A DNA stretch of 64,000 nt. It comes from Nautiliaceae bacterium (GTDB lineage Bacteria; Campylobacterota; Campylobacteria; Campylobacterales; Nautiliaceae). Under the pieces are notes generated by a model. It saw only the letters and a list, made by a program, of their open reading frames with translations. It ran no database searches and was not told the DNA's origin. The position numbers and the translations under genes are program-made. This document shows positions 44,850 through 63,788 of the stretch, piece after piece; position 1 is the first letter of the stretch, and the number at the start of each line of letters is the position of its first letter. Where the stretch lies: the NCBI GenBank assembly GCA_039831155.1, contig JBDONT010000009.1, forward strand, positions 1 through 64,000, written 5' to 3'.

Positions 44850-46127
44850 ATGAAAAAGCTGTTGATTTTTTTTGGTGTAATATTGTTCGGGGCGAATTTG
44901 CATTTTAGTTTATACAAAAAAGAGGCACTTCCGGGAAATACCCTTCTTATTATAGGCGGTATTCACGGAAACGAACCGGGAGGGTATTACGCGGCTTCTT
45001 TTTTGGTAAAGTATTACCATATAACAAAAGGGGCTTTGTGGGTTGTACCTAATTTGAATTTTGATTCTATTATTAAGTTTAGAAGAGGAATTTACGGGGA
45101 TATGAACAGAAAATTCGCTTTTATATCCGTTAAGGATAAAGATTATAAGATAGTTCAGGATATAAAAAAGATTATCTTAAATCCTCAAGTTGATATGATT
45201 TTAAATCTTCACGACGGGCACGGGTTTTATAGGTATTCCTGGCAAAATTCCATTTTCAATCCTTCCGCGTGGGGACAGACGTGTATAATAGACCAGGAAA
45301 AAATAAAAACCAATAAATTCGGAAATTTGGGGGATATCGCAAGAAAAGTCTCTCAAAACTTAAATGAGGATTTAAAAAAAGATTATCACTATTTTAATGT
45401 AAAAAACACAAAAACAAAGTTTAAAGACGAGCAGATGAGGCTTTCTTTAACATATTTTGCCATTACTCATAATAAACCGGCTTTTGCGATTGAAACAAGT
45501 AAAAACATAAAAGAGCTGCCTCTTAAAATTTATTATCAGTTGAGGGCAATTGAAGAGTATATGAAAATTATGAATATAGGGTATAAAAGGGATTTTAATT
45601 TAAGTGTGGAAGAGATAAAAACTTTGCTGAAAAAACAAGAGTATGTAGTTATTAACAATAATACGATTTTGCCTCTTAAAGGTTTGGTTAAAGTTATAAG
45701 ATATTTTCCTTTGAATTCCAGAAAAATATCTTATTATTCCAAAAATCCTTTGGTTGCCGTGGTAAAAGAACACGATTATTATGTATTGTATGAAGGAAAC
45801 CACCGTTTGGCGGTTATTTACCCTCAATATTTTAATAATTATTGCAGATTAAAATCTCTAAAGGTTATTGCGGACGGAGAAGAGAGGGATGTCAAGTTGC
45901 CTTCCGTTATAGAGGTAAAAGATTATTTTGAAGTTAAAAATCTTAACAGAAGAGTTAACGTTATAGGTTTTAGTTCCAAAGACGGCGAGACGGGTGTAAA
46001 AATTACCAGAAATATGTTGCCGCCGAAATTCAGTGTGGATGTGAATCATTCTGTTTATAGGGTGGAAATTTATGATAAAAAAAGTTTTTGCGGAATGTTT
46101 TTAGTCAGATTTAAAGGAGAAAAATGA
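44850..46127 (+). CDS. pgp1: M99-family DL-carboxypeptidase (Pgp1/Csd4-like)
   Basis: [30 protein letters not shown]. Confidence 0.85.
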
Positions 46128-48603: not shown

Positions 48604-50307
48604 ATGCTAAAAGAAATAAGACTGTTTTTAACTAATCCGGAACAAAGTAATATAACGAAAATTTTAAATTCGGATTATAATGAATTAAAAATTCTTCAAA
48701 AAATGTTAAGCGTTTATTTGGAATCGGGGGAAGAGGTTAAAGTTAGGGAAATTTTAAGAGAAGTATTTAAAGTCGAAGGACTGGAAGCTTTGGAAAAAAC
48801 GGAGCATATAACAACTCTTTTAAAAGAGGGATGGATTGTTTTGGACTCTTTTAATAGAGTAAACGATAATTTGACTACGCTTGAGCTTTTTAACTCTTAC
48901 GTTTCTTTATCCGTCTCTTTTTTAAAACTTTTAGAAGGAAAGTCCGATTTGGTAATTCCCGAAGAAACGCCTTATAAAGAACATTCGGAGTTTTTACACG
49001 ACGAATTTTTAAGGGTGGAACTTTACGAGCGATTATACTCTTTAAAATCCGATTTTTTAAAAGAATCTGCAAGTATAAAGAGAGTGAAAAATAAATTAAA
49101 ATTGATAGAAGATATAATTGAGGAAAAAATAAAAAAAACTAAAATAGATTTACCGGTTTTAAATTTTATCCGAAAACGTGAATTCGATGAAAAAGAGGAA
49201 CTGATATTTTGGGCTCTTTTAAAAGAGGAATATACTTCCGGTAACGAACGACTAAGAGAACAAAATTATCTTTTGAGTTTAATTAGTGAGAATGAAATAG
49301 AAAGGATAAAAAACAGAAGTTTGCTTGATGATAATTCGAAATTAGTGGGAGATGGTGTTTTGGAATATGATGAGCTTTTTAACGTAACGGGAAGATATAC
49401 GAAAGTGTTTTTTATTAATGAGGATATTTTAAAAGAACTTATTTATCCTAAGAAAAAGCATAAAATAGAACATATTGTAAAAGAGAGTATATTTGATTTT
49501 TATGAGCCGGTAAAAGGATTTGAAGAGGTGGTGTTGCCTAAAGCTACGAAAGAGAGCGTTGTTAGACTTTTAAAGCAAGCGGATAAAAAGGTTCTTAAAC
49601 TTTTAAGAGAGTGGGGGATTAAAACCTCAAACGATATTGAAGCGAAAGTTATATTTTACGGACCGCCGGGTACGGGTAAAACTTTAACCGCTTATGCTAT
49701 TGCTAAAGAACTTGATAAGCCGATTTTGAGTTTGGATTCTAGTAAAATACTTTCGATGTATGTAGGAGAGAGTGAAAAAAACGTAAGAAGAATGTTTGAT
49801 GAATATTATTCCATATGTGAAAAATTAAAGACCAAACCTATTTTACTGTTGAATGAAGCCGACCAATTTTTAAGTACAAGAACGAGTGCTTCTTTTAGCA
49901 GTGCGGATAAAATGCATAATCAAATGCAAAATATTTTTTTGGAGCAATTGGAAAAATTCGACGGATTTTTAATAGCAACTACCAATTTGCTCGAAACTTT
50001 GGATAGTGCTTTTTCAAGAAGATTCGATTATAAAATAAAATTCGAAAAACCTTCTTTTAAAGAGAGAAAAAGGTTGTGGGATATTAAACTTCCTAAAAAT
50101 GCCGAATATGAAAAAAACTTTAGTACGGAAATTTTAAGTCGATATGAATTAAGCGGTGCCCAAATAGAGGTTGTTATTAAAAATACCGCTTTAAAAACGG
50201 CTTTAAAAAAAGAACCGGTATTTAAAGTGAAAGATTTTACGGAAGAGATAGAAAGAGAACAAAAAAACGCTTTTGATTCTCAAAATGAATTGGGCTTTAA
50301 GATTTGA
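48604..50307 (+). CDS. AAA+ family ATPase
   Basis: GPPGTGKT, SMYVGESEKN, LLNEAD, ATTN, AFSRRF. Confidence 0.92.
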   Translation: MLKEIRLFLTNPEQSNITKILNSDYNELKILQKMLSVYLESGEEVKVREILREVFKVEGLEALEKTEHITTLLKEGWIVLDSFNRVNDNLTTLELFNSYVSLSVSFLKLLEGKSDLVIPEETPYKEHSEFLHDEFLRVELYERLYSLKSDFLKESASIKRVKNKLKLIEDIIEEKIKKTKIDLPVLNFIRKREFDEKEELIFWALLKEEYTSGNERLREQNYLLSLISENEIERIKNRSLLDDNSKLVGDGVLEYDELFNVTGRYTKVFFINEDILKELIYPKKKHKIEHIVKESIFDFYEPVKGFEEVVLPKATKESVVRLLKQADKKVLKLLREWGIKTSNDIEAKVIFYGPPGTGKTLTAYAIAKELDKPILSLDSSKILSMYVGESEKNVRRMFDEYYSICEKLKTKPILLLNEADQFLSTRTSASFSSADKMHNQMQNIFLEQLEKFDGFLIATTNLLETLDSAFSRRFDYKIKFEKPSFKERKRLWDIKLPKNAEYEKNFSTEILSRYELSGAQIEVVIKNTALKTALKKEPVFKVKDFTEEIEREQKNAFDSQNELGFKI

Positions 50308-50486
50308 AGATTTTGTATGTTTAAACGAAAAGATAAGTTTGTTAAATCTGGACGCTTCACTGAATAGTTATTTATTACCCAGGGTAACTAGCTTGAAAAT
50401 AACTTTCAAAATTCGGATAATATTTGTTTTATTAAGTTTTTTCTTTTATAATATGAGAGTGCTTACATCTTTAATAAGGAGTGATA

Positions 50487-50825
50487 ATGGGAACAATTAT
50501 GTTTTTTGCATCGGGTATTTTATTGGGAGTAATATTATTATATTTCATAGGTATAGCGGTTGCACCTTTAAATCCGGGGGAAATTAAAAACGACCACTTT
50601 GAATGTGGTTTGCCACCTAGTTCTGAAGTACCTATGAAGGCTAATTTCGGATATTTTATTTTTGCTATTGCCTTTATCGTATTTGATATGGCAGGGTTAT
50701 TTTTTAGTCTGTTTGTATTTGCCGATACAACTGAAGCTTTAAACTGGGCTATGGTGTTTGGAATCTTATTATTTGCAGCTATTACGATTAGTATGAAGGA
50801 GTATAGAAATGCTAAAAGTGCTTGA
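50487..50825 (+). CDS. nuoA: Complex I-like subunit A
   Basis: FECG, FIVFD, three TM helices; ATG 50487 after AAGGAG. Confidence 0.85.
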   Translation: MGTIMFFASGILLGVILLYFIGIAVAPLNPGEIKNDHFECGLPPSSEVPMKANFGYFIFAIAFIVFDMAGLFFSLFVFADTTEALNWAMVFGILLFAAITISMKEYRNAKSA

Positions 50826-51282
50826 TTTTTTTAATTATGCAAGAAGTAAGTCGCCGTGGATTGTGCATTTTTGTAGTGGTTGTTGTTCTCTTGAAATGTT
50901 GGCGGCTATGGGACCTAGATACGATTGGGAGAGATACGGTTATATTATGACTCCGACTCCAAGACAGGCTGATATTATGTTTATTACAGGGCTTGTTAGT
51001 AAAAAAATTCTTCCGGCTCTTCTTAGAACTTATGAGCAAATGCCAGAACCAAGATATGTTGTAGCAATTGGTGCTTGTGCGTATGATGGTGGTCCTTATA
51101 ACGATTCTGAAGCCGTTATTAAAAATATGACGGAAATTCTTCCGGCTGATGTGTTTGTTGCCGGATGCCCTCCAAGACCGGAGGCTATTATTGCCGGACT
51201 TGAAGAATTGAAAGAAAAAATCAAAAAAGGCGAACCCTCCGCATCCAGTCAAGGCGGACTTTGGAAACAAATGAAATTTTAA
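50809..51282 (+). CDS. nuoB: Complex I-like subunit B (Fe-S; NuoB/MbsJ/FpoB family)
   Basis: CSGCCSLEM, RYDWERYG, PRQAD, GACA, VAGCPPRPE. Confidence 0.9.
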   Translation: MLKVLDFFNYARSKSPWIVHFCSGCCSLEMLAAMGPRYDWERYGYIMTPTPRQADIMFITGLVSKKILPALLRTYEQMPEPRYVVAIGACAYDGGPYNDSEAVIKNMTEILPADVFVAGCPPRPEAIIAGLEELKEKIKKGEPSASSQGGLWKQMKF

Positions 51283-51291
51283 GGAAAGACT

Positions 51292-52941
51292 ATGGAGAAA
51301 ATTAAAGAGATTTTAAACAAATACGATACGGAATATGTAGAAGATTACAAAACTACGTGGGTTAAAGCAAAACTTAAAAATAAAGAAGATTTATTAAAAG
51401 TCGTTCAAGATTTAATAAATGAAGGTGTAAAAACTTGTTCTACGGTTTCTCCTACCGATTTTATTGATGAAAATAAAATAGAAGTTAATTATTTCCTTGA
51501 AGATTTATTCAATAAAAGAAACGTATGGTTAAAAGTGGATATTCCAAGGGAGCTTGAAAGTTGTGAAATTGATTCAATTACCCCTTTAATGCCCAGTGCC
51601 AATTGGCACGAACTTGAAGCTTATTCCACTTACGGAGTTAAGTTTAAAGGACATCCGAATCTTAGATACTTTTTAATCAGTAGAGACTATTATGGAAAGT
51701 TTCCTTTTAGAAAAGATTTTGACTGGAAAAAACACGAAGAAAATTTAGTTGAAAATGTAAATGCAATTACTGAAGAATATTTTGAAGAGTATGACGAACA
51801 CGAAAAAGATTTCGGACACGAAGGAAGTAAAACAGTTCTAAACTGGGGACCTACGCATCCGGCTAGCGGACCTATTAGATTAAAAGTTTATATAGACGGA
51901 GAAAAAATAGAAAAAGTTCAACCGGATATAGGTTATGTATGGAGAGCTTTGGAGCATTTGGCTGAGAGAAAAGACTTTATAGGGACTATCGTTGCTGTTG
52001 AGAGAATCTGTTTTATGGATAATCCGAATCCAATGATTTGCTATTCTCAAGCCGTTGAAGAAATTGCCGGGAAAGAGATTACACCGTTTGCTAAATATAT
52101 GAGAGTGATTTTAGGTGAAACGGGAAGGATTGCGTCTCACTTAATTTCTCTTGGTGGTTTTTTCGGTACTATGGGGCTTCACACTTTTATGATGTGGTGT
52201 CTTGATATCAGAGAATATTTCCTTGATGTTTTGGAAGATTACAGTGGAGCCAGAATCGCAACAGCTTGTATAGAACCGGGAGGAGTTAGATATCCACTTG
52301 AAGACCCTCAAAAATGGTTTGATTCTTTAGATAGGGCGATGAATAAATTTGAAGAAACAAAAGATGATATTACCGATATTTTCTTAAAAAACCCTCTTAT
52401 GAATACAAGGGCAAAAGGGGTTGGTGTATTTACACTTGAAGATGTTGAAAAATATTATTTAGCCGGTCCGATTGCTAGGGCAAGTGGAGCTAAAATTGAT
52501 GTGAGAATAGATGAGCCTTATGCCGGATACGGTGATTTAAAAATGGATTATGTAACTTGTGAAAACGGAGATGCAAGAGATAGACTGTTTATTATCTTTA
52601 AAGAAATTGAGCAATCTATTGATTTAATTAAACAGGCTCTTGAAAGAATTAAAGCGGGAATAGAAGCAGGTGAAATGGATCCTAAAAAGGATCATTTAAT
52701 CAGAATGCCAAAAAGAATGCCGGCAGGTGAGGCTGTAACTAGGGTTGAATGGGCAAGAGGTGAGATGCTTATGCATCTGGTTACAGGGGAAAAAGCGACA
52801 AGCCCTTATAGATTAAAACTTAAAGCACCTAGTGTAAACCATACTATGGTACTTGATAAATTATTAAAAGGTAAATCCCTATCGGATATTCCGCTTCTTT
52901 ACGGAAGTATGCATATCTGTCAGGGTGACCTTGATAGGTAA
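51292..52941 (+). CDS. nuoCD: Fused complex I-like subunits C/D with CxxD motifs (MbsKL/FpoCD-like)
   Basis: ANWHELE..GVKFKGHP..PFRKDF (C); GPTHP, ERICFMD, C-terminal ICQGDLDR (D). Confidence 0.85.
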   Translation: MEKIKEILNKYDTEYVEDYKTTWVKAKLKNKEDLLKVVQDLINEGVKTCSTVSPTDFIDENKIEVNYFLEDLFNKRNVWLKVDIPRELESCEIDSITPLMPSANWHELEAYSTYGVKFKGHPNLRYFLISRDYYGKFPFRKDFDWKKHEENLVENVNAITEEYFEEYDEHEKDFGHEGSKTVLNWGPTHPASGPIRLKVYIDGEKIEKVQPDIGYVWRALEHLAERKDFIGTIVAVERICFMDNPNPMICYSQAVEEIAGKEITPFAKYMRVILGETGRIASHLISLGGFFGTMGLHTFMMWCLDIREYFLDVLEDYSGARIATACIEPGGVRYPLEDPQKWFDSLDRAMNKFEETKDDITDIFLKNPLMNTRAKGVGVFTLEDVEKYYLAGPIARASGAKIDVRIDEPYAGYGDLKMDYVTCENGDARDRLFIIFKEIEQSIDLIKQALERIKAGIEAGEMDPKKDHLIRMPKRMPAGEAVTRVEWARGEMLMHLVTGEKATSPYRLKLKAPSVNHTMVLDKLLKGKSLSDIPLLYGSMHICQGDLDR

Positions 52942-52950
52942 GGAGAGAAA

Positions 52951-53922
52951 ATGAGTGTAGGAAGTATGTTATTTTATATTTTTGTTTTTCCGGGATTACT
53001 TTTTTTGCTTGCTTGGACGTTTTTTGTATTTTATTTTGCAAGAAAGGCGTTAGCTTATATTCATAAAAGAGTAGGACCTCACTTTAACGGACCGGCGGGT
53101 ACTTTACAAACTTTTTACGATATAGTGAAACTTTTGACTAAAGAATCGATTACTCCTAAAAGTGCCGACCCTTATCTTTTTAATATTATTCCGATTATTA
53201 CACCTCTTGTAGCGGCACTGCCGGTTATTTTGATTCCTTGGACTCCGCTTATTAATAACGGACACGGGATTTTGGATACTCAATACGGAGTGCTCGGACT
53301 TGTCGTATTAATTGGGGTTGAACCTTTCTTACTGTTCTTAACGGGGTTCGGTTCCGATAATAAATATTCTTTTTTAGGAGGTATGAGAATCTTAGCTCAA
53401 ATGCTTTCAATGGAAGCACCGTTTTTCTTAGCCGCACTTTCACCGGCACTTCTTTTTGGTACGATGAATTTATATGATATTATGTATTCGAATACGTGGC
53501 TTACGACTTTAATTTTACTTCCGGGAGCTATTATATTTATTATAGCAATGCTCGGAATTCTTGAACAGCCTCCTTTTAATATTCCGGATGCGGAACAAGA
53601 GATTGTTTACGGGTTTTATACCGAATATTCGGGAACTAATTACGTACTTTTAAAATTTGCCGAATTTACTGAAATGTTAGTGGTAAGTGCAGCTGCGGTT
53701 ACTCTTTTTTTCGGAGGGTATAGAGGGCTGTTTTTTGACAGTTTTTGGTGTTTGTTTTTAAAAATCGTTTTACTTGCATTGGTAATGGTTGCTATTAGGG
53801 CGGCAAACCCGAGACTTAGACTTGATCAGATGCTTAAATTCTGTTGGAGTTGGTTGACACCTCTTGCGGTTTTAAATTTAGTTTGGATAATTTTTGCGAA
53901 AATTTATATTTTAGGAGTATAA
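52951..53922 (+). CDS. nuoH: Complex I-like subunit H
   Basis: RVGP, DIVKLLTKE, NKYSFLGGMR, PFNIPDAEQEIVYG..TEYSG. Confidence 0.92.
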   Translation: MSVGSMLFYIFVFPGLLFLLAWTFFVFYFARKALAYIHKRVGPHFNGPAGTLQTFYDIVKLLTKESITPKSADPYLFNIIPIITPLVAALPVILIPWTPLINNGHGILDTQYGVLGLVVLIGVEPFLLFLTGFGSDNKYSFLGGMRILAQMLSMEAPFFLAALSPALLFGTMNLYDIMYSNTWLTTLILLPGAIIFIIAMLGILEQPPFNIPDAEQEIVYGFYTEYSGTNYVLLKFAEFTEMLVVSAAAVTLFFGGYRGLFFDSFWCLFLKIVLLALVMVAIRAANPRLRLDQMLKFCWSWLTPLAVLNLVWIIFAKIYILGV

Positions 53923-53923
53923 G

Positions 53924-54418
53924 ATGTTTTTTAATATTATTGAAAAAGCTTTTAAAGTTACGAAAGCTTTTAAAGAACCTAGAATCGCTACGAAAAATGT
54001 TAGTAAGGACGTTATGCATCATTCTCCTATGTTTAGAGGAAAACACGAAATTAAATATGAAATTTGTACCGGATGTGAAGCGTGTGCCAAAATTTGTCCG
54101 GTAGATGCTATTGTAATGGCACCTCTTCCTATTAAAAGACCGAAAGCTTTGCCGGAAGTGAATTTGGCTATTTGTATTTTTTGTGGTCTTTGTGAGGATG
54201 TTTGTCCCACTAAGCCGGAAAAAGCTATTAAGCTTAGCGGCGGTACGTTTGAAATGATTACCGGTGGTACGAATGAGGATTTGGATAAATATTGGGTTAA
54301 ATGTGATGTACCTAAAGAGTGGATAGAAGAGAAGAAAAAAGAAGAAGAAGAAAAAGCTAGAAAAAAAAGAGAAATGATGGCTAAGAAAAAAGCTGAAGCT
54401 GCTAAAGGAGAGGCGTAA
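53924..54418 (+). CDS. nuoI: Complex I-like subunit I (2x[4Fe-4S])
   Basis: CTGCEACAKICP and CIFCGLCEDVCP. Confidence 0.92.
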   Translation: MFFNIIEKAFKVTKAFKEPRIATKNVSKDVMHHSPMFRGKHEIKYEICTGCEACAKICPVDAIVMAPLPIKRPKALPEVNLAICIFCGLCEDVCPTKPEKAIKLSGGTFEMITGGTNEDLDKYWVKCDVPKEWIEEKKKEEEEKARKKREMMAKKKAEAAKGEA

Positions 54419-54885
54419 TGAGTGTATTGATTTTAGCGTTAGCGGTAATACTTGCCGTTATGTCTTTAACTCAAAAAAATACGGTACCGGCGGTACTTGC
54501 GTTTGTTATGATGATGTTTTTATTGGGGATTTACTATATTCTAATGGATGAAAAACTACTTGGACTTTTCCAAATTTTCGTATATACGGGCGGTATTGTA
54601 GTTTTAACCCTATTTGGTGTTACTGTAATAGGGTCTAAGTTTCCTAAGTTTGAAATAAGACCTTGGGCTGTAGCTGTTGTTACTGTAGTAGTTATAGGGC
54701 TTTTAATTATTCCGTTTATTTTACCTCCTATTCAGTATGAAGTCAAAGCTTTACCTTTGAAAGAACAAGTGAAAATTTTTACTGATTTTTATTCTGAAAT
54801 TGCAATTTTTATGGGTGTGGTAGCGGCTAGCGTATTATACGGAAGTATTAGAATGTTACATACTTTAAAGCATGAAAAGGAATAA
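54418..54885 (+). CDS. nuoJ: Complex I-like subunit J
   Basis: QIFVYTGGIVVL; multi-TM; operon position. Confidence 0.88.
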   Translation: MSVLILALAVILAVMSLTQKNTVPAVLAFVMMMFLLGIYYILMDEKLLGLFQIFVYTGGIVVLTLFGVTVIGSKFPKFEIRPWAVAVVTVVVIGLLIIPFILPPIQYEVKALPLKEQVKIFTDFYSEIAIFMGVVAASVLYGSIRMLHTLKHEKE

Positions 54886-54887
54886 AA

Positions 54888-55196
54888 ATGATAGGTTTTT
54901 ATATTGATACGATTTTTGCGATTATTTTGTTTGGAGTGGGATTATACGGGGTAACGAGCAAAAGCGATTTTTTAAAAATTTTCTTTTCTTTGGAAATTTT
55001 ACTTAATGCGGTTATTTTATTTCTAGCTAGCGGTGCTTATCATTTCGGATTAACTAAAGGTTTGGCGATAGCTTATGTAATTATAGTGATAGCTACTTTA
55101 GAAGCTGCGGCGGGAGTACTTATTTTCTTATTGAGTTATAGAATAACCGGAGAAATTATTCCGGATAAATTAGATAAGGCGGTGAGCGATGAGTAA
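54888..55196 (+). CDS. nuoK: Complex I-like subunit K
   Basis: GLYG, SLEILLNA, LEAAAG. Confidence 0.9.
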   Translation: MIGFYIDTIFAIILFGVGLYGVTSKSDFLKIFFSLEILLNAVILFLASGAYHFGLTKGLAIAYVIIVIATLEAAAGVLIFLLSYRITGEIIPDKLDKAVSDE

Positions 55197-57042
55197 TGCG
55201 GTATTAGTGTTATTAATGGCTCCGTTTATAGGGGCTGTTTTAGCATATGTATTGGGAAAAATTAAAATCAATTTAGCGTTTTGGGTAGCGGAAATTGTAG
55301 GTATTATGCTTTTTGCCGCTAGTTTAGTGATATTTACGATTCATAGCGGGTCACCGATTGATATTGACTATACGTGGATAGCGTATGGGGACTTGAAACT
55401 TCCTTTTGGTATTTATATTGACCATTTAAGCATAGTAATGCTTTTAATTGCAACAGGTCTTGGATTGGCTGATATTCATTTTGCCCATGATTATATGGGA
55501 GATGACCCGGATCAACCTAGATATTATGCAAAAGTTCTTTTCTTTATCGGTGGGATGATTTTACTTGTTATTACAAAAGACTTGATCGGTGCTTTTGTCG
55601 GTTGGGAATTTATGGGGCTTGCTTCTTATGCACTAATTAGTTTTTGGTATTATAAAAATTCAGCTGCAGATGCTGGTATGCAGGCGTTTTTATATACGAG
55701 ATTCGGTGATATCTTTATTTTAGCGGCTATCGGTTTACTTGTTTATTATGTAGGTACCTTAAATTTAGTTGAGTTAAATGAGCTTGCAAATGCAGGTGAA
55801 ATAAATAAAACCGTAGCTTTAGTAGTGGCACTGTTTATTTTTATGGGTGCTGTCGGTAAATCAGGTCAGTTTCCACTATACCCTTGGCTTATGAACGCAA
55901 TGGAAGGTCCGACAACCGTTTCGGCACTTATTCATGGTGCTACAATGGTTAACTCCGGTATTTATATCGTAGCTAGACTTTTTGATTTCTTTGCATATAC
56001 CGATGCTTTATTTATAGTTGCGAACGTTGCGGCACTTTCAGCGTTTATCGGTGCTACTTCGGCTCTTGTTCAAAAAGAGATTAAAAAAATCCTTGCATAT
56101 TCAACTATGTCTCACTTATCAATAGCATTTGTGGGGCTTGGAGTTGGAAGTCTTGCAGCCGGAATGCTTCATCTTGTAAACCATGCAATTTTTAAAGCGT
56201 TACTTTTCTTAAGTGCTGGGGCTGTAATTTATATAGCACATCATACAAAAGATGCTTGGAAACTTGGTGGTCTTATTAAAACGGCTCCGTTTGTGGCGTT
56301 GTTTATGGCTATGGGGTCACTAAGTCTTGCCGGTGTACTTCCTTTTAGTGGATTTTTCTCAAAAGAGATGGTTGTTTCTGCGGCTTGGGCTCACGGAAAC
56401 GAATTTACAAAAGTGTTTGTAACTATTGCGGCACTTTTATCAATTGCATATATTACAAGACTTTGGATTTTAATCTTCTTAGGAGAACCTAGAAACGAAG
56501 ATATAGCGGGAAGCGTTCATGCTCCAAGTAACCTTTGGATGAGATTACCTCTTGGTGTTTTAGCGGTAATAACTTTGGCAATTTCAATTTGGCAAAGCGA
56601 TATAGTTCGTTTTATTTTAAACGGAAAAGAGGAAGTTGAACCTCATATTGTAGGTTTAACGGCATTTATGTTAACAGGAATGCTTATTATTTTCTTAATT
56701 GTGGTTGGGCTTTATGTTAAAGGTCTTAACTTACTATATAAAATTGCATCACACCATTTTGTACAGACAATCCATCAAATTCTGTTTAACGGATACTATG
56801 TAGAAAGAATAATTACGTGGATTTCAAAAACAATTGTTGTAAACTCTTTAGCAAAAGCGGCTAGATGGTTTGATACTAATGTTATTGATTATCTGGTTAA
56901 CGCTACAATTCCGGCTACTCAAATGGTATACAGAGTATTTAGAGCCGGTCATAGCGGTAAAATAGGGACTTATATGGGGCAATTCGTAATTGGTGTCGCA
57001 ATTATAGTTATTGCTATCTTAATAATTGTAAAGGGTCTGTAA
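55189..57042 (+). CDS. nuoL: Complex I-like antiporter subunit L
   Basis: GWEFMG, GKSGQFPL.PWL.NAMEGPTTVSALIH, HAIFKALLF. Confidence 0.94.
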   Translation: MSNAVLVLLMAPFIGAVLAYVLGKIKINLAFWVAEIVGIMLFAASLVIFTIHSGSPIDIDYTWIAYGDLKLPFGIYIDHLSIVMLLIATGLGLADIHFAHDYMGDDPDQPRYYAKVLFFIGGMILLVITKDLIGAFVGWEFMGLASYALISFWYYKNSAADAGMQAFLYTRFGDIFILAAIGLLVYYVGTLNLVELNELANAGEINKTVALVVALFIFMGAVGKSGQFPLYPWLMNAMEGPTTVSALIHGATMVNSGIYIVARLFDFFAYTDALFIVANVAALSAFIGATSALVQKEIKKILAYSTMSHLSIAFVGLGVGSLAAGMLHLVNHAIFKALLFLSAGAVIYIAHHTKDAWKLGGLIKTAPFVALFMAMGSLSLAGVLPFSGFFSKEMVVSAAWAHGNEFTKVFVTIAALLSIAYITRLWILIFLGEPRNEDIAGSVHAPSNLWMRLPLGVLAVITLAISIWQSDIVRFILNGKEEVEPHIVGLTAFMLTGMLIIFLIVVGLYVKGLNLLYKIASHHFVQTIHQILFNGYYVERIITWISKTIVVNSLAKAARWFDTNVIDYLVNATIPATQMVYRVFRAGHSGKIGTYMGQFVIGVAIIVIAILIIVKGL

Positions 57043-58469
57043 TGGTAGCTGTAGATATAATTTTCGCTCCGATTTTTTTGTCGGTGCTTTTGTATTTTAT
57101 AACAAGAAATAATCAAGAACTTGCAAAGTATATTGCACTGGGGTGGTTTGTCGTTCAGTTAATTATTGCGATTAGTTGGTATAACGCTTTACCGGCGGAG
57201 GGTTTTTATAATTTGGGTACGTTTTTAAAAGTGCCTTATTTTGATTTTTCTTTAACTTTAAAAATTGACGCTTTAAGTGTAGCGATGCTTATATTAACGG
57301 CTGCACTTCTTATTTTGGTTGTATTTACATCTTGGGAAGAAAAAAACCAAGCGGCTTATTTTAGTTTATTGGTACTATTTAGCGGTCCGATTTTCGGTGT
57401 ATTTATGACTACGAACGTATTATGGTTTTTTATGTTTTGGGAATTGACTTTAGTTCCTATGTTTTTTCTTGTCGGTTTTTGGGGTGGTGAGAGAAGAATT
57501 TACGCAGCTGTTAAGTTTTTCTTATATACACACCTTGCTAGTATGTTTATGTTTGTAGGTTTTTATCTTCTTTATAAACAAACCGGTTATTGGGACTTAA
57601 GCGAAATAAAAGAAGTTATGCTTGCAACTCCGGCACTTATTTGGTGGTTGATGTTTATAGGGTTTGCAGCAAAACTTCCTGTATTTCCGTTTCATACGTG
57701 GCTACCTGATGCACACGTTGAGGCACCTAGTTCTATTTCTGTACTTCTTGCCGGGGTACTTCTTAAAATGGGTGCTTACGGTTTAATTAGATTTACGGTT
57801 GAACTTATGCCTTATACAACAACTGACTTTTCAAACTGGATGTTGATTATCGGTATTAATACTACACTTTTTGCCGGTATGCTTGCGATTTATGAAAAAC
57901 ATATCAAAAAAATGGTTGCATATAGTTCCATTTCGCATATGGGGCTTGTTGTGGTTGCAATTGCTACAATGACTTATGACGGTTTAAGTGCGGCATTTTA
58001 TGAAATGATAGGACACGCACTTGTGATTTCGCCACTGTTTTTAATTGCCGGATGGCTTCACCATAAAACTCATACGTGGTATATGGATGAGATGGGCGGA
58101 ATTATGAAAAAAGCTCCTTATGTGAGTGCGATTTTTATTTTAGCCGGTATGGCGGCTCTTGGACTTCCCGGTACTATGGGATTTGTAGGAGAACTTACCA
58201 TTATAGTTTCGGCTATTAAATCGTTTGGTTGGTGGGTTGCGGTAATTGCAATAGCTTCGTTAATCAGTGCCGGGTATATTATTTGGGCGGTTAGACGAGC
58301 AATTCACGGAGAGATGTCTCCGATTGTACAAAAAGCGGATTTTACTATGAGTTTTCCTGAAAAACTTGCTTTAGCTATATTTGCAATTATGATTGTATAT
58401 TTTGGTATTCAACCACAACCAATCTTTGATTTAGCAAACAAAGCATTTAGCTTTCTTGGAGGGATGTAA
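57042..58469 (+). CDS. nuoM: Complex I-like antiporter subunit M
   Basis: FWELTLVP, KLPVFPFHTWLPDAHVEAP, LLKMGAYG, PGTMGFVGE. Confidence 0.95.
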   Translation: MVAVDIIFAPIFLSVLLYFITRNNQELAKYIALGWFVVQLIIAISWYNALPAEGFYNLGTFLKVPYFDFSLTLKIDALSVAMLILTAALLILVVFTSWEEKNQAAYFSLLVLFSGPIFGVFMTTNVLWFFMFWELTLVPMFFLVGFWGGERRIYAAVKFFLYTHLASMFMFVGFYLLYKQTGYWDLSEIKEVMLATPALIWWLMFIGFAAKLPVFPFHTWLPDAHVEAPSSISVLLAGVLLKMGAYGLIRFTVELMPYTTTDFSNWMLIIGINTTLFAGMLAIYEKHIKKMVAYSSISHMGLVVVAIATMTYDGLSAAFYEMIGHALVISPLFLIAGWLHHKTHTWYMDEMGGIMKKAPYVSAIFILAGMAALGLPGTMGFVGELTIIVSAIKSFGWWVAVIAIASLISAGYIIWAVRRAIHGEMSPIVQKADFTMSFPEKLALAIFAIMIVYFGIQPQPIFDLANKAFSFLGGM

Positions 58470-59806
58470 TGAGTTTTATAATATTAGTAGCGGCGGGATT
58501 ACTCGTACCGGTATTTTATAAAAGCAATATCTTTATTGCTAAGCTAATAGCTATAGTGGCGTTTATTGCCAGTGCTATAGCGATTTATAACGGTGCTAGT
58601 TTAAATAGTGTGTTTCCTTTTTTTGTATCGGATGATTCGACTAAGTTAATGGAGTATGTATTGCTTGCGACTCTGGCGGCGGTTACTCTTTCTTTAACGG
58701 GATTCGAAAGACCTTTAATCGCTCAAATGCTTTTTGTGGCAAGTGCAAGTATTGCGATTTTAGAGACAAACAACTTTTTCTTATTTATTGTTTTGTTTGA
58801 GGTAATTGCTATTATTTCTTATGTTTTAGTTGCAAATATCAGAAACTTTTATAATGCCGAAGGTGCTATAAAAGCGTTTATAGCAGGTGCGGTTGCGAGT
58901 GGTATTATTTTGCTTGGTTTTGCTCTTTTTAGTTTTGTAACGGATAGTTTTAATTACGAAACTATGAATGTAGAGGGAAAATTTACTTTAATTGCGGTTG
59001 CCATTATGCTTGCCGGTATTTTTTATAAACTTACAGTTGTTCCTATGCACGGATGGGCGGCTGATGCTTACGCTCAAGTAAACCACGCGGCGGCCGCTAT
59101 TTTAAGCGGGGTTATTAAGAGTGTAATGTTAGTGGCTGTATTTAAAGCGTTTTATAAGTTTTTAATCGCTTATCCTTTATCAACCGTTTTAATTTTCAGT
59201 TTCTTTGCAATTCTTACAATGACGCTTGCAAACTTTATGGCGTTGTGGCAAAAAAGAATTTCAAAAATTCTTGCTTATTCTTCAATCGCTCACAGTGGAT
59301 ATGCGTTAATCCCTTTTGCGGCAGCAGCTAGTATGTACGCTTATACAGGGGTTCTTTATTATGCGATTGCATATATCTTTATGCAAACGAGTGTATTTTT
59401 ACTTCTTAACGATTTAAGAAGAGAAGCGGGTGTTAAATATCTTGAAGATATTAAAGGACTTGGTGAGAGAGCACCGGTTCACGCACTGTTTTTTACTTTA
59501 CAACTCTTCTCACTTGCCGGTATTCCTTTACTTGCAGGATTTTTATCTAAAGCAGTAGCGTTTTATGCGGGTGTTGATGCCGGACTTTGGTGGGTTGTAT
59601 TGATTGCTCTTTTAAATTCGGCTTTGGCAGTTGCTTATTATGCTTGGATAATAAAACATATTTACTTTGATAAAGCTATTGTAAAAGATAAAATCAATAT
59701 TTCAAGTGGAAGCTTAATAGGTCAGTTGATCTTATTAGCGGGTACTATCTATTTCGGTATCGTAGCCGCCGATGTTTTTGCTACGACGGTTCCACTTTCA
59801 ATGTAG
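58469..59806 (+). CDS. nuoN: Complex I-like antiporter subunit N
   Basis: AEGAIK, KLTVVPMHGWAAD, LAYSSIAH, SLAGIPLLAGF.SK. Confidence 0.93.
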   Translation: MSFIILVAAGLLVPVFYKSNIFIAKLIAIVAFIASAIAIYNGASLNSVFPFFVSDDSTKLMEYVLLATLAAVTLSLTGFERPLIAQMLFVASASIAILETNNFFLFIVLFEVIAIISYVLVANIRNFYNAEGAIKAFIAGAVASGIILLGFALFSFVTDSFNYETMNVEGKFTLIAVAIMLAGIFYKLTVVPMHGWAADAYAQVNHAAAAILSGVIKSVMLVAVFKAFYKFLIAYPLSTVLIFSFFAILTMTLANFMALWQKRISKILAYSSIAHSGYALIPFAAAASMYAYTGVLYYAIAYIFMQTSVFLLLNDLRREAGVKYLEDIKGLGERAPVHALFFTLQLFSLAGIPLLAGFLSKAVAFYAGVDAGLWWVVLIALLNSALAVAYYAWIIKHIYFDKAIVKDKINISSGSLIGQLILLAGTIYFGIVAADVFATTVPLSM

Positions 59807-59839: not shown

Positions 59840-62068
59840 TTGAGAGTTTTTTTCTCTTTTTTATTATTTGTATTTTCTTTCGGATTAGAAATTAATGTGG
59901 ATTATGCAAAAAATTATGAAATACTAACTCTTTATAATACTTTTCCTTTTCATTGTATGCGTTTACAAAAAGAAGTTGTTTGTGAATTTGATAAAACTCC
60001 TTCGACACCGGTTTTTAAGGCGAATACTATTTATTTTAATATTATTCCCGTTTTTAAAAAGGGCTTTTTTTTGGATATAAAAGTTAAAAAATCTTTTATT
60101 TTAAAACCCTTAGGAGACAATTTGTATAACGCTCCTTTAATTGGAAAACATATTGTAAAATCTAAAAAATGGGTTATTTTGGTTGGAGTTAGTTTAGAAG
60201 AAGACAATAAAGGGCTTAATTTTTATTACCGTAATTCTCCGAAACTTTATGTCGGAACAATTGATGAAAACGGAAATCCTATAAACATCAATAAAGAATC
60301 GGCTGATGTGGTAAGGTATTTTGAGCTTCAAAAAGCTTTTTTACAGGGTAAAGATATTTCGGATGATTTGGATTCTTTTTTAAAAGAGTATCCTCATTCC
60401 GTTTTTGTGCCGGATGTTTTGTTTATGAAACTTGAGCTGCTGGATAAAAAAAATATGCCAGATGATGTAATTCAACTTGGAAAAGAGTGGATTAAAAAAT
60501 ACTCTTTTAATGAAAATCTGCCTAAAGTACTTCTTTTAATTGCAAAAAATTATACAAAACTGGGCTTTTTAACGGATGCCAGTTATTTTTATCAAAGGAT
60601 AATTACCGAATATCCAAAAAGTGATGAGGCTTACTTAGCTATGATTTACTGGGCGGACCAGCTTTATATGACAGGGGAGAGTAAAAAAGCTTTGGATTTA
60701 TATAAAAGAGCTTTGTATTCTACTAAAAATATAGAGGTTGCATCACTAGCAGCTATGAGACTTGCCCAAAGATATATGGATAAAGGCGATATAAAAACTG
60801 CGATTGAATACTACAAAAAAGTGTATGAAGCTAATAAAGAGTTTGTTTTAAGGGATAAATTAAAAGCTTTTGATTTGGCTAAAAACCTAGCTTCTCATAA
60901 AATGTACTCTTTTGCTATTGATATAGGTTCTGATTTGTTAAAAAGACTTAAAAAACTTGATGATTTGTATGAGCCGTTGGAGTATTATTTGGCTCTTTGG
61001 GCTTATGAAGATAAAAATTATAAATTATCCGCTTATTATATAAATGAATATTTGAAAAATTTTCCTTATGGAGATTATAGCGATAAAATAGACGATTTAA
61101 GAGATAAGGTGCTTTTTGAAGTGCCGGACGATAATGTAACGGCTCAATTGCAAAAGATAGATGAAGTAATTGAAAAATATAAAGGTCTTCCTATAGCCAA
61201 AAAGGCACTTTATAAAAAAGTTATGCTTTTGTATAAGCTTAAGAAATATAAAGAAATTTTAGATTTAAAAGATGAAATTTTAAAGTTTGACGAATTTAAA
61301 GACGGTAAGTTTTTGGAAAAAGTGGCAAAAGAGTACGCAAAAGAGCTTTTAAAAGAGAAAAAATGTTTTAAGATTGTAAAACTTTTAAAAGAGTATAAAA
61401 TAAAACTTGAAAAAAAATATGACGATGAAATATATAAGTGTGCTATGAAAACAAAAAATTACTCTTTAGCTTCAATTGTCTGTAATAAATATTTAACTTC
61501 ACCCGATGATAAAGTGTTTGTTAAGTGGATGAAAAGAAAAATAGACGCTTTATGGGGAATGGGGGATTATGAAGATGTTATCACGGGGGTTGATGATTTA
61601 TGTGAAGCGGCTAAGGAGTGTTTGGAGTATAAATTTAAAAAGTTTTTTGCTCTTTGGAAATTAAAAAGATTTAAAGAAGCTTTAAAGGTTGCTTATGAGC
61701 TTAATAAATATGACGATATAAGAGTAAGTGACGTATTTATTAAAGTGGTAAATTACGCTTTATCTCATAATAATCCTCTATTAGCCGTTCAATATGCAAA
61801 AAAAATTATAGATTTACAAAACAGATACCATACTTATGTTTATTCCCCTTTTGTTGAGTTCACTTACGCTCAATATACTAAAAACAAAAAAGAAGCTATT
61901 AAAGTTTTAAAATCTCTGCTTAAAAGAGTAAAAGGGGAAGATAAGGCGAGGGCTTATTATATGCTTGCTAGTTTGAGTGAAAATAAAGAGTATCTTAAAA
62001 AATGTATAAAGGTAAAAGGTTCTAAGTTATGGAGAGGTCTTTGTAAAGATGCTTTAAATCTTTTTTAG
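59840..62068 (+). CDS. pflA: Paralysed flagellum protein PflA-like TPR protein
   Basis: Signal peptide, N-terminal beta region then TPR repeats; position directly after nuoN as in Campylobacter/Helicobacter. Confidence 0.75.
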   Translation: MRVFFSFLLFVFSFGLEINVDYAKNYEILTLYNTFPFHCMRLQKEVVCEFDKTPSTPVFKANTIYFNIIPVFKKGFFLDIKVKKSFILKPLGDNLYNAPLIGKHIVKSKKWVILVGVSLEEDNKGLNFYYRNSPKLYVGTIDENGNPININKESADVVRYFELQKAFLQGKDISDDLDSFLKEYPHSVFVPDVLFMKLELLDKKNMPDDVIQLGKEWIKKYSFNENLPKVLLLIAKNYTKLGFLTDASYFYQRIITEYPKSDEAYLAMIYWADQLYMTGESKKALDLYKRALYSTKNIEVASLAAMRLAQRYMDKGDIKTAIEYYKKVYEANKEFVLRDKLKAFDLAKNLASHKMYSFAIDIGSDLLKRLKKLDDLYEPLEYYLALWAYEDKNYKLSAYYINEYLKNFPYGDYSDKIDDLRDKVLFEVPDDNVTAQLQKIDEVIEKYKGLPIAKKALYKKVMLLYKLKKYKEILDLKDEILKFDEFKDGKFLEKVAKEYAKELLKEKKCFKIVKLLKEYKIKLEKKYDDEIYKCAMKTKNYSLASIVCNKYLTSPDDKVFVKWMKRKIDALWGMGDYEDVITGVDDLCEAAKECLEYKFKKFFALWKLKRFKEALKVAYELNKYDDIRVSDVFIKVVNYALSHNNPLLAVQYAKKIIDLQNRYHTYVYSPFVEFTYAQYTKNKKEAIKVLKSLLKRVKGEDKARAYYMLASLSENKEYLKKCIKVKGSKLWRGLCKDALNLF

Positions 62069-62951: not shown

Positions 62952-63788
62952 ATGTTAAAAAAATATATGGAACTTGTAAAATTTTCTCATACGATTTTTA
63001 GTATACCTTTTATTTTAATTTCTATGATTGTTGCAGCTAACGGTTGGTTTGGATTTAGGCTGTTGTTTTTGGGTATTTTGGCGGCTGTTAGTGCCAGAAA
63101 TTTTGCCATGGCGGTAAATAGGCTTGTAGATAAAGATATAGACGCTAAAAATCCTCGAACTCAAAATAGAATTTCGGTAACGGGAGAGATTAGTGAATCT
63201 CAAATAAAGCTTTTTATTATTGCAAACGCTTTGATTTTCATAGAAATCGCTTATTTGATTAATCCTTTGGCTTTTAAACTCTCTATTCCTATTTTGGCAG
63301 TGCTTGGAGGGTATAGTTATTTTAAACGTTTTAGCGAGTACGCTCATTTGGTTTTGGGCGTTGCTTTAGGACTTGCTCCTATTGCGGGTGTTATAGCGAT
63401 AAAAGAGTCTATTCCTTGTTGGTCCGTGTTTTTAGCGTTGGGGGTTATGTTTTGGGTTGGAGGATTCGATATTTTATATTCTCTTCAGGATATGGAGTTT
63501 GATAAAAAAGAGGGGCTTTATTCGATTCCGTCGGTTGTCGGAGAGAGGGGAGCTATTTTTATTTCGGGGATGTTTCATCTTTTTAGTGTTGTATTTTGGG
63601 CTTTGTTTGCAGCTTACGCAAAGCTTGGATTTTTCGGATGGCTTGCTGTATTTGTAGCCGCTTTAATGCTTTATTACGAACACAGATTGGTAAAAAAAGA
63701 TTTTAAAAATATTCCAAAAGCATTTTTTGACGTAAACGGGTTTTTGGGAATTATATTTTTAATTTTAATTATTCTAGATAAGGTTTGA
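62952..63788 (+). CDS. mqnP: UbiA-family prenyltransferase of futalosine menaquinone pathway (MqnP)
   Basis: KFSHTIFS.PF, AMAVNRLVD..IDAKNPRT, YSYFKRF, FDILYSLQD. Confidence 0.88.
   Translation: MLKKYMELVKFSHTIFSIPFILISMIVAANGWFGFRLLFLGILAAVSARNFAMAVNRLVDKDIDAKNPRTQNRISVTGEISESQIKLFIIANALIFIEIAYLINPLAFKLSIPILAVLGGYSYFKRFSEYAHLVLGVALGLAPIAGVIAIKESIPCWSVFLALGVMFWVGGFDILYSLQDMEFDKKEGLYSIPSVVGERGAIFISGMFHLFSVVFWALFAAYAKLGFFGWLAVFVAALMLYYEHRLVKKDFKNIPKAFFDVNGFLGIIFLILIILDKV

Follow-up and report, generated by a model that had tools for sequence, protein, structure and literature searches.

The nuo operons of Nautilia and other Nautiliales are already known from work in 2009 and 2015 to lack nuoE, nuoF and nuoG and to encode a NuoD with leftover hydrogenase cysteines. 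Campbell et al. (2009) described the N. profundicola nuo genes without E, F and G, with K also missed, and proposed reverse electron transport to NAD(P)H (PMC2628731). Degli Esposti (2015) considered the Nautiliales operon (NUO10) and that of the Desulfurobacteriales (NUO11) the most ancestral nuo operons, with the first and third [NiFe] cysteines retained (positions 86 and 403) and H38, Y87, and D139 lost, and by analogy with Mbx guessed at a ferredoxin:NADP+ role (PMC4758237). A later reassessment of these operons in the light of the sulfane-sulfur reductase MBS was not found in open-access papers and bioRxiv. Here we analyzed a nuo operon in 64,000 nucleotides of a Nautiliaceae bacterium that we assign to Nautilia (GenBank assembly GCA_039831155.1, contig JBDONT010000009.1, positions 1 to 64,000; the window). 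In its genome, 1.53 Mb split over 43 contigs, the window is contig C12. The operon has the layout, the NuoC-NuoD fusion, cysteines 1 and 3 and the ligand losses of NUO10/NUO11, nothing essential is different, and it is another species' copy of the Nautiliales NUO10 family. The operon encodes a complete complex I-type membrane arm and an iron-sulfur (Fe-S) quinone module (Q-module) but no NADH module (N-module). With about even confidence, we propose that the enzyme is a proton pump working reversibly between ferredoxin and menaquinone, with a quinone site that has diverged.

A first-pass annotation of the same DNA had read the genes as nuoA-B-CD-H-I-J-K-L-M-N without E, F or G. The open reading frame list, Pfam and NCBIfam models, and a genome-wide profile search agree: ten tightly packed genes, abutting or overlapping and all on the plus strand, lie at 50487-59806 (Table 1). 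Across the whole genome, the profiles for NuoF (PF01512) and NuoG (PF10588) gave no match and that for NuoE (PF01257) a single sub-threshold match on another contig (21.1 bits against a cut-off of 24.8). As the genome is 96.73% complete, absence of the three subunits is likely rather than proven. With nuoA-D and nuoH-N in one cluster, and nuoE, nuoF and nuoG found neither there nor elsewhere in the genome, the operon has the N-module-less NUO11/NUO10 form. "NADH-quinone oxidoreductase" is a misnomer in the annotation of the Nautilia nuo operon because the genome has no NADH-binding module. PF00346 matches three further loci in the genome: two encode true group 4 [NiFe] hydrogenases that have the two CxxC motifs, and the third encodes an Ehr-like complex. 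There is therefore no second canonical nuo operon, and a nuoG elsewhere in the genome was not found either. The Ehr-like cluster lies outside the window (L004:829-2193; G000 contig C20:185633-186997). Its 454-residue large subunit has none of the four NiFe cysteines (ERISGNES ... SYAGNDL) and its small subunit retains the Cys motifs, so by sequence it looks like an Ehr-type complex, hydrogenase-related without being a hydrogenase.

The translation of nuoCD includes GPTHPASGPIRL, VERICFMDNP and the C-terminal HICQGDLDR, with a C domain at about residues 31-148, a D domain at about residues 180-549, and the loop GPTHPASG in the latter. Counted from the start at 51292, the codon for Cys240 is 52009-52011 and that for Cys543 is 52918-52920, exactly where the first-pass annotation had placed the cysteines of ERICFMD and CQGDLDR. 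We compared the D domain with other D-type subunits in an alignment of 150 rows, from which six fragments and three near-duplicate Nautiliaceae (nine rows) had been dropped. The 57 canonical NuoD rows have Asp or Asn followed by Tyr at the first motif, the second loop His, and no Cys; the 44 hydrogenases have CxxC twice; and Cys at NiFe positions 1 and 3 is retained in 21 of the 150 rows. A group 4 [NiFe] hydrogenase has four of these cysteines, but the host D domain has only the first and third. Its loop (GPTHPAS-GP) is one residue shorter with the second His deleted, Tyr87 in Thermus numbering is replaced by Phe241, and the Asp139 column holds Thr in the host and Thr, Asn or Ala across the clade; the H38/Y87/D139 numbering was taken from PMC4758237, without a direct Thermus alignment. 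None of the canonical quinone ligands His38, Tyr87 and Asp139 is thus present. The missing second His and Tyr had been seen in the first pass as well. The combination of a NuoC-NuoD fusion, NiFe cysteines 1 and 3, and loss of H38, Y87 and D139 is that by which the Nautiliales subtype was defined (PMC4758237). The Cys/Asp pattern is invariant across the Nautiliaceae and a sister group from the Aquificota that is 47% identical, and judged by this conservation, the Cys-plus-acid pattern exceeds chance.

The same pattern occurs in MBS from Pyrococcus furiosus (PDB 6U8Y). MbsL (PDB 6u8y_L) reads GPQHMAT-ENF, RICVPEPD, and CPPDIDR, so like the Nautilia enzyme it has Cys-x-x-acid twice (CVPE/CPPD against CFMD/CQGD) and neither H38 nor Y87. 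Both enzymes lack an N-module, and MBS is ferredoxin-fed, as is predicted for the Nautilia enzyme. They also share an upstream small-subunit Cys (MbsJ C25, NuoB C22) and equal loop length. The comparisons drawn in the first pass, that hydrogenases have two CxxC motifs, MbsL one Cys plus an acid in each, FpoD cysteines, and complex I none, hold in the 150-row alignment and in 6u8y_L. The likeness raises the possibility, to our minds a low one, that the operon encodes a ferredoxin:sulfane-sulfur (polysulfide or persulfide) reductase with an MBS-like chamber on a complex I arm, where either the proximal cluster or a dithiol-disulfide couple of Cys240 and Cys543 would carry out the reduction. The identical Cys-x-x-acid pattern, the absence of H38, Y87, and D139 as in MBS, and the description of the known holders as vent hydrogen oxidizers that reduce sulfur (PMC4758237) favor this. 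However, MbsL C85A/C385A and MbsJ C25A mutants of MBS retain dimethyl trisulfide reductase activity, and PMC7684303 assigns catalysis to the proximal cluster, held by MbsJ C28, C93, and C123 only, with one iron open. The MbsL cysteines being dispensable, the three-Cys cluster is the catalytic feature. The suggestion from the first pass that the Cys pair forms an MBS-like polysulfide site is therefore not supported, given the MBS mutants and the four ligands that NuoB offers.

NuoB carries the motif FC22SGC25C26SLEM together with C90 and C120. Its gap-free alignments score 145.9 bits with MbsJ and 145 bits with PSST, a near tie that could be read for sulfane-sulfur reduction. In the alignment, NuoB C22 corresponds to MbsJ C25 and C25 to MbsJ C28, but C26 supplies a fourth Cys where MbsJ has Gly29. 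C25 and C26 align to the tandem Cys of bovine PSST (FGLACCAVEM), the pair at complex I cluster N2. Because C26 completes the tandem pair, NuoB has four candidate ligands in the complex I arrangement (C25, C26, C90, C120). It therefore carries the tandem Cys of a canonical Q-module and not only the three Cys by which MbsJ, with no Cys at position 29, holds the MBS proximal cluster.

The motif C(S/T)GCC is present in all eight related Campylobacterota loci and in the six Aquificota loci holding this part of nuoB, a seventh being cut by a contig end. Among the NuoB clusters listed, it is found in all 17 nearest ones (at least 62% identity), while the other 103 comprise 92 with a G..CC tandem (mostly GLACC), two with YC(I/V)ACC, and nine without a match to the pattern. 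Among these same clusters, the nearest relatives outside the clade are tandem-Cys NuoB proteins and not of the MbsJ type. Within the family, NuoB is 95-98% identical compared to 82-86% for NuoCD. The tandem Cys of NuoB is said to appear abruptly in Fpo (PMC4758237); that it lies within a CxGCC motif in the Nautiliaceae/Aquificota clade is not evident in the accessible text of that paper.

A metagenome contig from an unrelated deep lineage (L034:64-7784) encodes A-B-fused CD-H-I-M-L, with three cysteines in its D motifs (class CICCD) and a NuoB reading HFCFGCCSTE. The pairing of a CxxCC small subunit with a large subunit that retains Cys is therefore not confined to the Nautiliaceae/Aquificota clade. 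A Campylobacterota genome of a different family (2.4 Mb) encodes a D-type subunit that is 33% identical (L020; G075:C1:1317114-1321190), next to a NuoB-like protein reading YGTGCGAIEM. As its N2 site has a single Cys like that of MbsJ, this may be a true MBS/Mbx-like complex in the Campylobacterota.

Unlike the Q-module, the membrane arm is unambiguous. MBS has an Mrp-derived arm with two pumps (MbsA-E, G, H, H'), while the best models for the host genes are NuoL, M, N, H, A, J, and K. Against PDB entries NuoH scored 153 bits with Thermus thermophilus Nqo8 and 148 with Escherichia coli NuoH, compared to 62 with MbhM and 60.6 with MbsM; by E-value exponent it is four times closer to Nqo8. NuoL gave a full-length alignment with its E. 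coli counterpart (residues 6-614 with 5-612, 261 bits) and its best score with NdhF (282 bits), against 104 for MbsH and 84 for MbsH'. NuoL also retains the motifs GWE, GKS.Q.PL, SALIH, H..NHA.FKALLF, and FSKE, which we take to hold the pumping residues of complex I. Similarly, NuoH keeps the PDAEQE loop between transmembrane helices 5 and 6 and acidic residues aligned to Nqo8 E163, E235 and E248, presumably functional in complex I. NuoD is as close to MbsL (169.8 bits) as to complex I (170-178 bits) and NuoB is likewise equidistant; the equal scores suit a sulfane-sulfur reductase but the NuoH and the complex I-type rather than Mrp arm do not. Taken together, a basal Q-module sits on an unmistakably complex I-type pump. 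The idea from the first pass of an MBS-like site on a complex I membrane arm thus stands for the MbsL-like signature and for the arm, and is not supported for the cysteine pair as a polysulfide site.

Like the Nautilia enzyme, Fpo (F420H2:methanophenazine oxidoreductase) has a complex I-type arm, and its FpoD keeps cysteines 1 and 3 (ICYLVAL and CTSEADR in Methanosarcina) and lacks H38 and D139. Fpo reduces a lipophilic quinone analogue without the full ligand set. Unlike the Nautilia D domain, which has Phe, FpoD has Tyr87, and the host protein scored 245 bits with the FpoD model NF040602 (cut-off 600). Cyanobacterial NDH-1 and the Nuo of Desulfitobacterium share the 11-subunit set without NuoEFG and are proposed to pass electrons from ferredoxin to quinone, with the Desulfitobacterium enzyme inferred to make menaquinol (PMC11238625). 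They differ in having canonical quinone ligands in NuoD/NdhH and no vestigial Cys, and NDH-1 has extra ferredoxin-binding subunits, of which none was found for the Nautilia enzyme. The complex I of Campylobacter and Helicobacter, from the same phylum, is also NADH-independent but is flavodoxin-fed and has NuoG and two replacement subunits; canonical Campylobacterota NuoB reads G(L/H)ACC.

In our preferred explanation, reduced ferredoxin would dock at NuoI, whose two clusters would relay its electrons to an N2-type NuoB cluster held by C25, C26, C90, and C120, with C22 spare. Menaquinone would be reduced in the cavity between NuoB, NuoD, and NuoH, where Cys240, Cys543, Asp243, and Asp546 may supply the polar or proton-donating groups in place of the customary Tyr and His. 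This would drive proton translocation through NuoH/A/J/K and through NuoL, M, and N. The enzyme is probably reversible and may run from menaquinol and the proton-motive force to reduced ferredoxin in a hydrogen-oxidizing autotroph using the reductive tricarboxylic acid cycle. With a menaquinone potential of -74 mV (PMC10734219), transfer from ferredoxin (about -450 mV) would release about 73 kJ, which would fit three antiporter-like subunits plus the NuoH/J/K channel; sulfane-sulfur reduction, at about 41 kJ per two electrons, would offer little for four proton paths.

The host makes menaquinone, as MqnP, the menaquinone prenyltransferase, is encoded 3 kb downstream of nuoN (NCBIfam, 447 bits against a cut-off of 375) and MqnA/D family genes are present elsewhere in the genome. 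Ferredoxin is the likelier donor because no gene matching flavodoxin_1 (PF00258) was found in the genome. Of the ferredoxin- or flavodoxin-driven ion pump envisaged in the first pass, the ferredoxin-fed and probably ion-pumping enzyme is retained and the flavodoxin option is weakened.

Several points weigh against menaquinone as the acceptor. All canonical quinone head-group ligands are gone from NuoD, with His or Tyr at position 401, and Degli Esposti read the same losses as older than quinone reactivity (PMC4758237). The D domain is under every NCBIfam NuoD equivalog cut-off (NF004739, 319.5 against 360; TIGR01962, 256.1 against 459.35), and NuoH has Ala at the position of Thermus E35. From the alignment, two Cys and two Asp that stay invariant over a deep divergence suggest a role beyond what quinone reduction would need. 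The energetic argument rests on standard potentials. Expression without sulfur is weak evidence. In the supplement to the study of Nautilia sp. PV-1, spectral counts are given for chains L (617 residues), M, and N (445 residues), with lengths matching the host genes, and the cells were grown without sulfur, on nitrate as the only acceptor; the main text of that paper does not discuss nuo. These homologues made in sulfur-free, nitrate-grown cells speak against a sulfur reductase, but only weakly, since in that study Psr, too, was produced in the absence of sulfur. In addition, sulfur respiration in Nautilia is already served by a periplasmic PsrABC. The operon is conserved and is expressed in a sister species.

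The enzyme could also be a living intermediate between MBS and complex I, a ferredoxin-fed proton pump with four paths that would reduce a sulfane-sulfur or thiol compound instead of a quinone, at a Cys240/Cys543 dithiol-disulfide couple beside the N2-type cluster, with Cys22 spare for ligand exchange. We think this improbable; if true, the chemistry at its reaction site would be undescribed for any member of the superfamily.

Equally doubtful is a role in which a separately encoded partner would let the enzyme exchange electrons with NAD(P)+ or a different soluble carrier, the quinone pool or ferredoxin being the other side. Such roles were proposed both as reverse electron transport (PMC2628731) and by analogy with the old Mbx model (PMC4758237), the operon itself encodes neither a donor nor an acceptor module, and 11-subunit enzymes are thought to dock varied partners (PMC11238625). 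However, a NuoF-type NAD(H)-binding domain was not found in the genome, no conserved extra gene flanks the operon in the window or in one Aquificota locus, and the Mbx analogy is outdated as Mbx is now the sulfur reductase MBS.

Least probable of all, at a very small chance, is that the operon retains or has repurposed only ion translocation, serving pH or sodium homeostasis for example, without productive redox turnover. A metagenome study speculated on a pH role for complex I membrane subunits (PMC10696704), but all Fe-S ligands of NuoB and NuoI are retained, the near-identity of NuoB across the family noted above does not fit a redox-silent role, and the entire operon is preserved in two phyla. 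What probability remains we leave to an explanation not yet conceived. For complex I relatives without the canonical quinone ligands, this clade joins a full pumping arm, an N2-type tandem-Cys site, and leftover NiFe cysteines in culturable vent bacteria. It bears on whether quinone reduction pre-dates the Tyr/His site and on where, in the passage from hydrogenase to MBS and then complex I, the tandem Cys arose.

To place the D domain we built a tree of 57 rows and 364 columns (IQ-TREE, LG+C20). Hydrogenases were split from all other D-type rows at 100/100, with the host on the non-hydrogenase side, and the Nautiliaceae and Aquificota D subunits formed a clade with support of 100/99. By this phylogeny they are a deep clade that is neither canonical NuoD nor hydrogenase. 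Nesting the clade within canonical NuoD, which the first-pass annotation had listed among the findings that would count against its reading, was rejected (delta lnL 60.3, approximately unbiased (AU) test p 5.9e-5). In the tree the MbsL-like proteins form a different clade, but forcing the two clades together costs a delta lnL of only 3.6 and was not rejected (AU p 0.408), which is compatible with a sulfane-sulfur reductase. Because the groups in both tests were chosen once a first tree had been inspected, these tests are somewhat weakened. The tree leaves open the branching order among the Nautiliaceae/Aquificota clade, MbsL-like proteins, Fpo, other Cys-keeping lineages, and canonical NuoD; Fpo, nearer the canonical clade in a quick tree, is not placed in this one. 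As the order of the deep clades is not settled, we make no claim of an ancestral lineage.

We also examined how widely this NuoCD is distributed. The best 120 of 733 matches are all fused proteins of 547-557 residues with 72-88% identity, and named members among them are Nautilia, Lebetimonas, and Caminibacter; the NuoCD of N. profundicola AmH is 86% identical. Among 151 Campylobacterota genomes, all seven of the host family, including the host, encode a high-identity NuoCD (82-100%). One genome of another family (G004) encodes a 65%-identical fused NuoCD with an FCTGCC NuoB (L016, G004:C51:140-4240). A different contig of this genome encodes a canonical NuoD, so both types can occur together. 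The remaining matches among those listed are at most 35% identical, and canonical Campylobacterota NuoD is 30-35% identical to the host D domain.

An exhaustive search of 1.84 billion cluster representatives returned only two close clusters, one of the fused form at 62% and one of an unfused form at 47% whose named members are Aquificota metagenome-assembled genomes. All further clusters are at 38% or less. A metagenome scan with five other deep Cys-keeping D subunits, which used one generic pattern, returned 80 loci that were mostly canonical NuoD or hydrogenase, the deep type being found only in L034 and L066. Of seven complete Aquificota loci, four were compared gene by gene (L022, L023, L024, and L026), all with matches ordered A, B, C, D, H, I, L, M, N and with identities from about 34% (NuoA) to 62% (NuoB). 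No match to J or K was returned in these four, though L026 has open reading frames of fitting size between I and L. A group 4 hydrogenase-like cluster with L-, H-, B-, and D-like genes and a CNGC small subunit lies directly upstream of the Aquificota nuo operon in two of them (L023:2612-6870, L024:48-1028).

The operon is also represented in metatranscriptome data from a vent. In two such runs, made from a single sample, 0.96 and 0.94 of the sampled words are present, and the contigs of these runs include pieces identical to the operon, located from 50469 to 58842; DNA carry-over is possible in these runs, and stretches without a listed piece are uninformative. Contig depth in the two RNA runs is several-fold higher over 50179-59730 than over the flanks, with no such step in a DNA-type run. 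As contig depth measures expression poorly, this is only a weak hint of transcription.

Table 1. Features of the nuo operon and its surroundings in the window
Feature	Position	Strand	Model or score	Remarks
M99 carboxypeptidase	44850-46127	+	228 bits	Csd4/Pgp1 cell-shape type
AAA ATPase	48604-50307	+		567 residues, winged-helix domain
nuoA	50487..50825	+	PF00507, 47.8 bits	membrane subunit
nuoB	50809..51282	+	PF01058; NCBIfam NuoB subfamily models passed (190 > 116; 167 > 142.7)	proximal [4Fe-4S] carrier
nuoCD	51292..52941	+	PF00329 + PF00346	fused, 549 residues
nuoH	52951..53922	+	PF00146, 285.7 bits	peripheral-arm membrane anchor, wall of substrate cavity
nuoI	53924..54418	+	Fer4 families	2x[4Fe-4S], probable electron-donor docking site
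nuoJ	54418..54885	+	PF00499	
nuoK	54888..55196	+	PF00420	
nuoL	55189..57042	+	TIGR01974, 418 > 407.5	antiporter-like, long C-terminal extension
nuoM	57042..58469	+	TIGR01972, 409 > 263.8	antiporter-like
nuoN	58469..59806	+	PF00361; TIGR01770 211 bits, under cut-off 332.6	antiporter-like
TPR/DUF7494 protein	59840-62068			between nuoN and MqnP
miaA	62054-62905	opposite		between nuoN and MqnP
MqnP	62952-63788	+	NCBIfam	menaquinone prenyltransferase

For nuoA, a GTG at 50481 lies two codons 5' of the ATG at 50487. The ATG, also the start given in the first pass, is likelier because translation from it reads MGTIMFF..., and the GTG is an open-frame artefact. The NuoI subfamily model gave 67.4 bits, under its cut-off. 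Promoter-like sites in the operon region are not in excess (30 compared to 32.3 in shuffles) and terminator-like sites number 13 compared to 8.4; neither was used as evidence.

Among the genes flanking the nuo operon in the window or in the Aquificota locus L026, no donor or acceptor module was found. In the window the flanks are the AAA ATPase, the TPR/DUF7494 protein, and miaA; in L026 they are a trigger factor, an aminotransferase, CinA, a urea transporter, and a tRNA ligase fragment. The AAA ATPase directly upstream of nuoA weakly resembles the anti-phage ATPase IteA (113 bits against a cut-off of 510). Further upstream, the M99 carboxypeptidase is consistent with the helical cell of a Campylobacterota.

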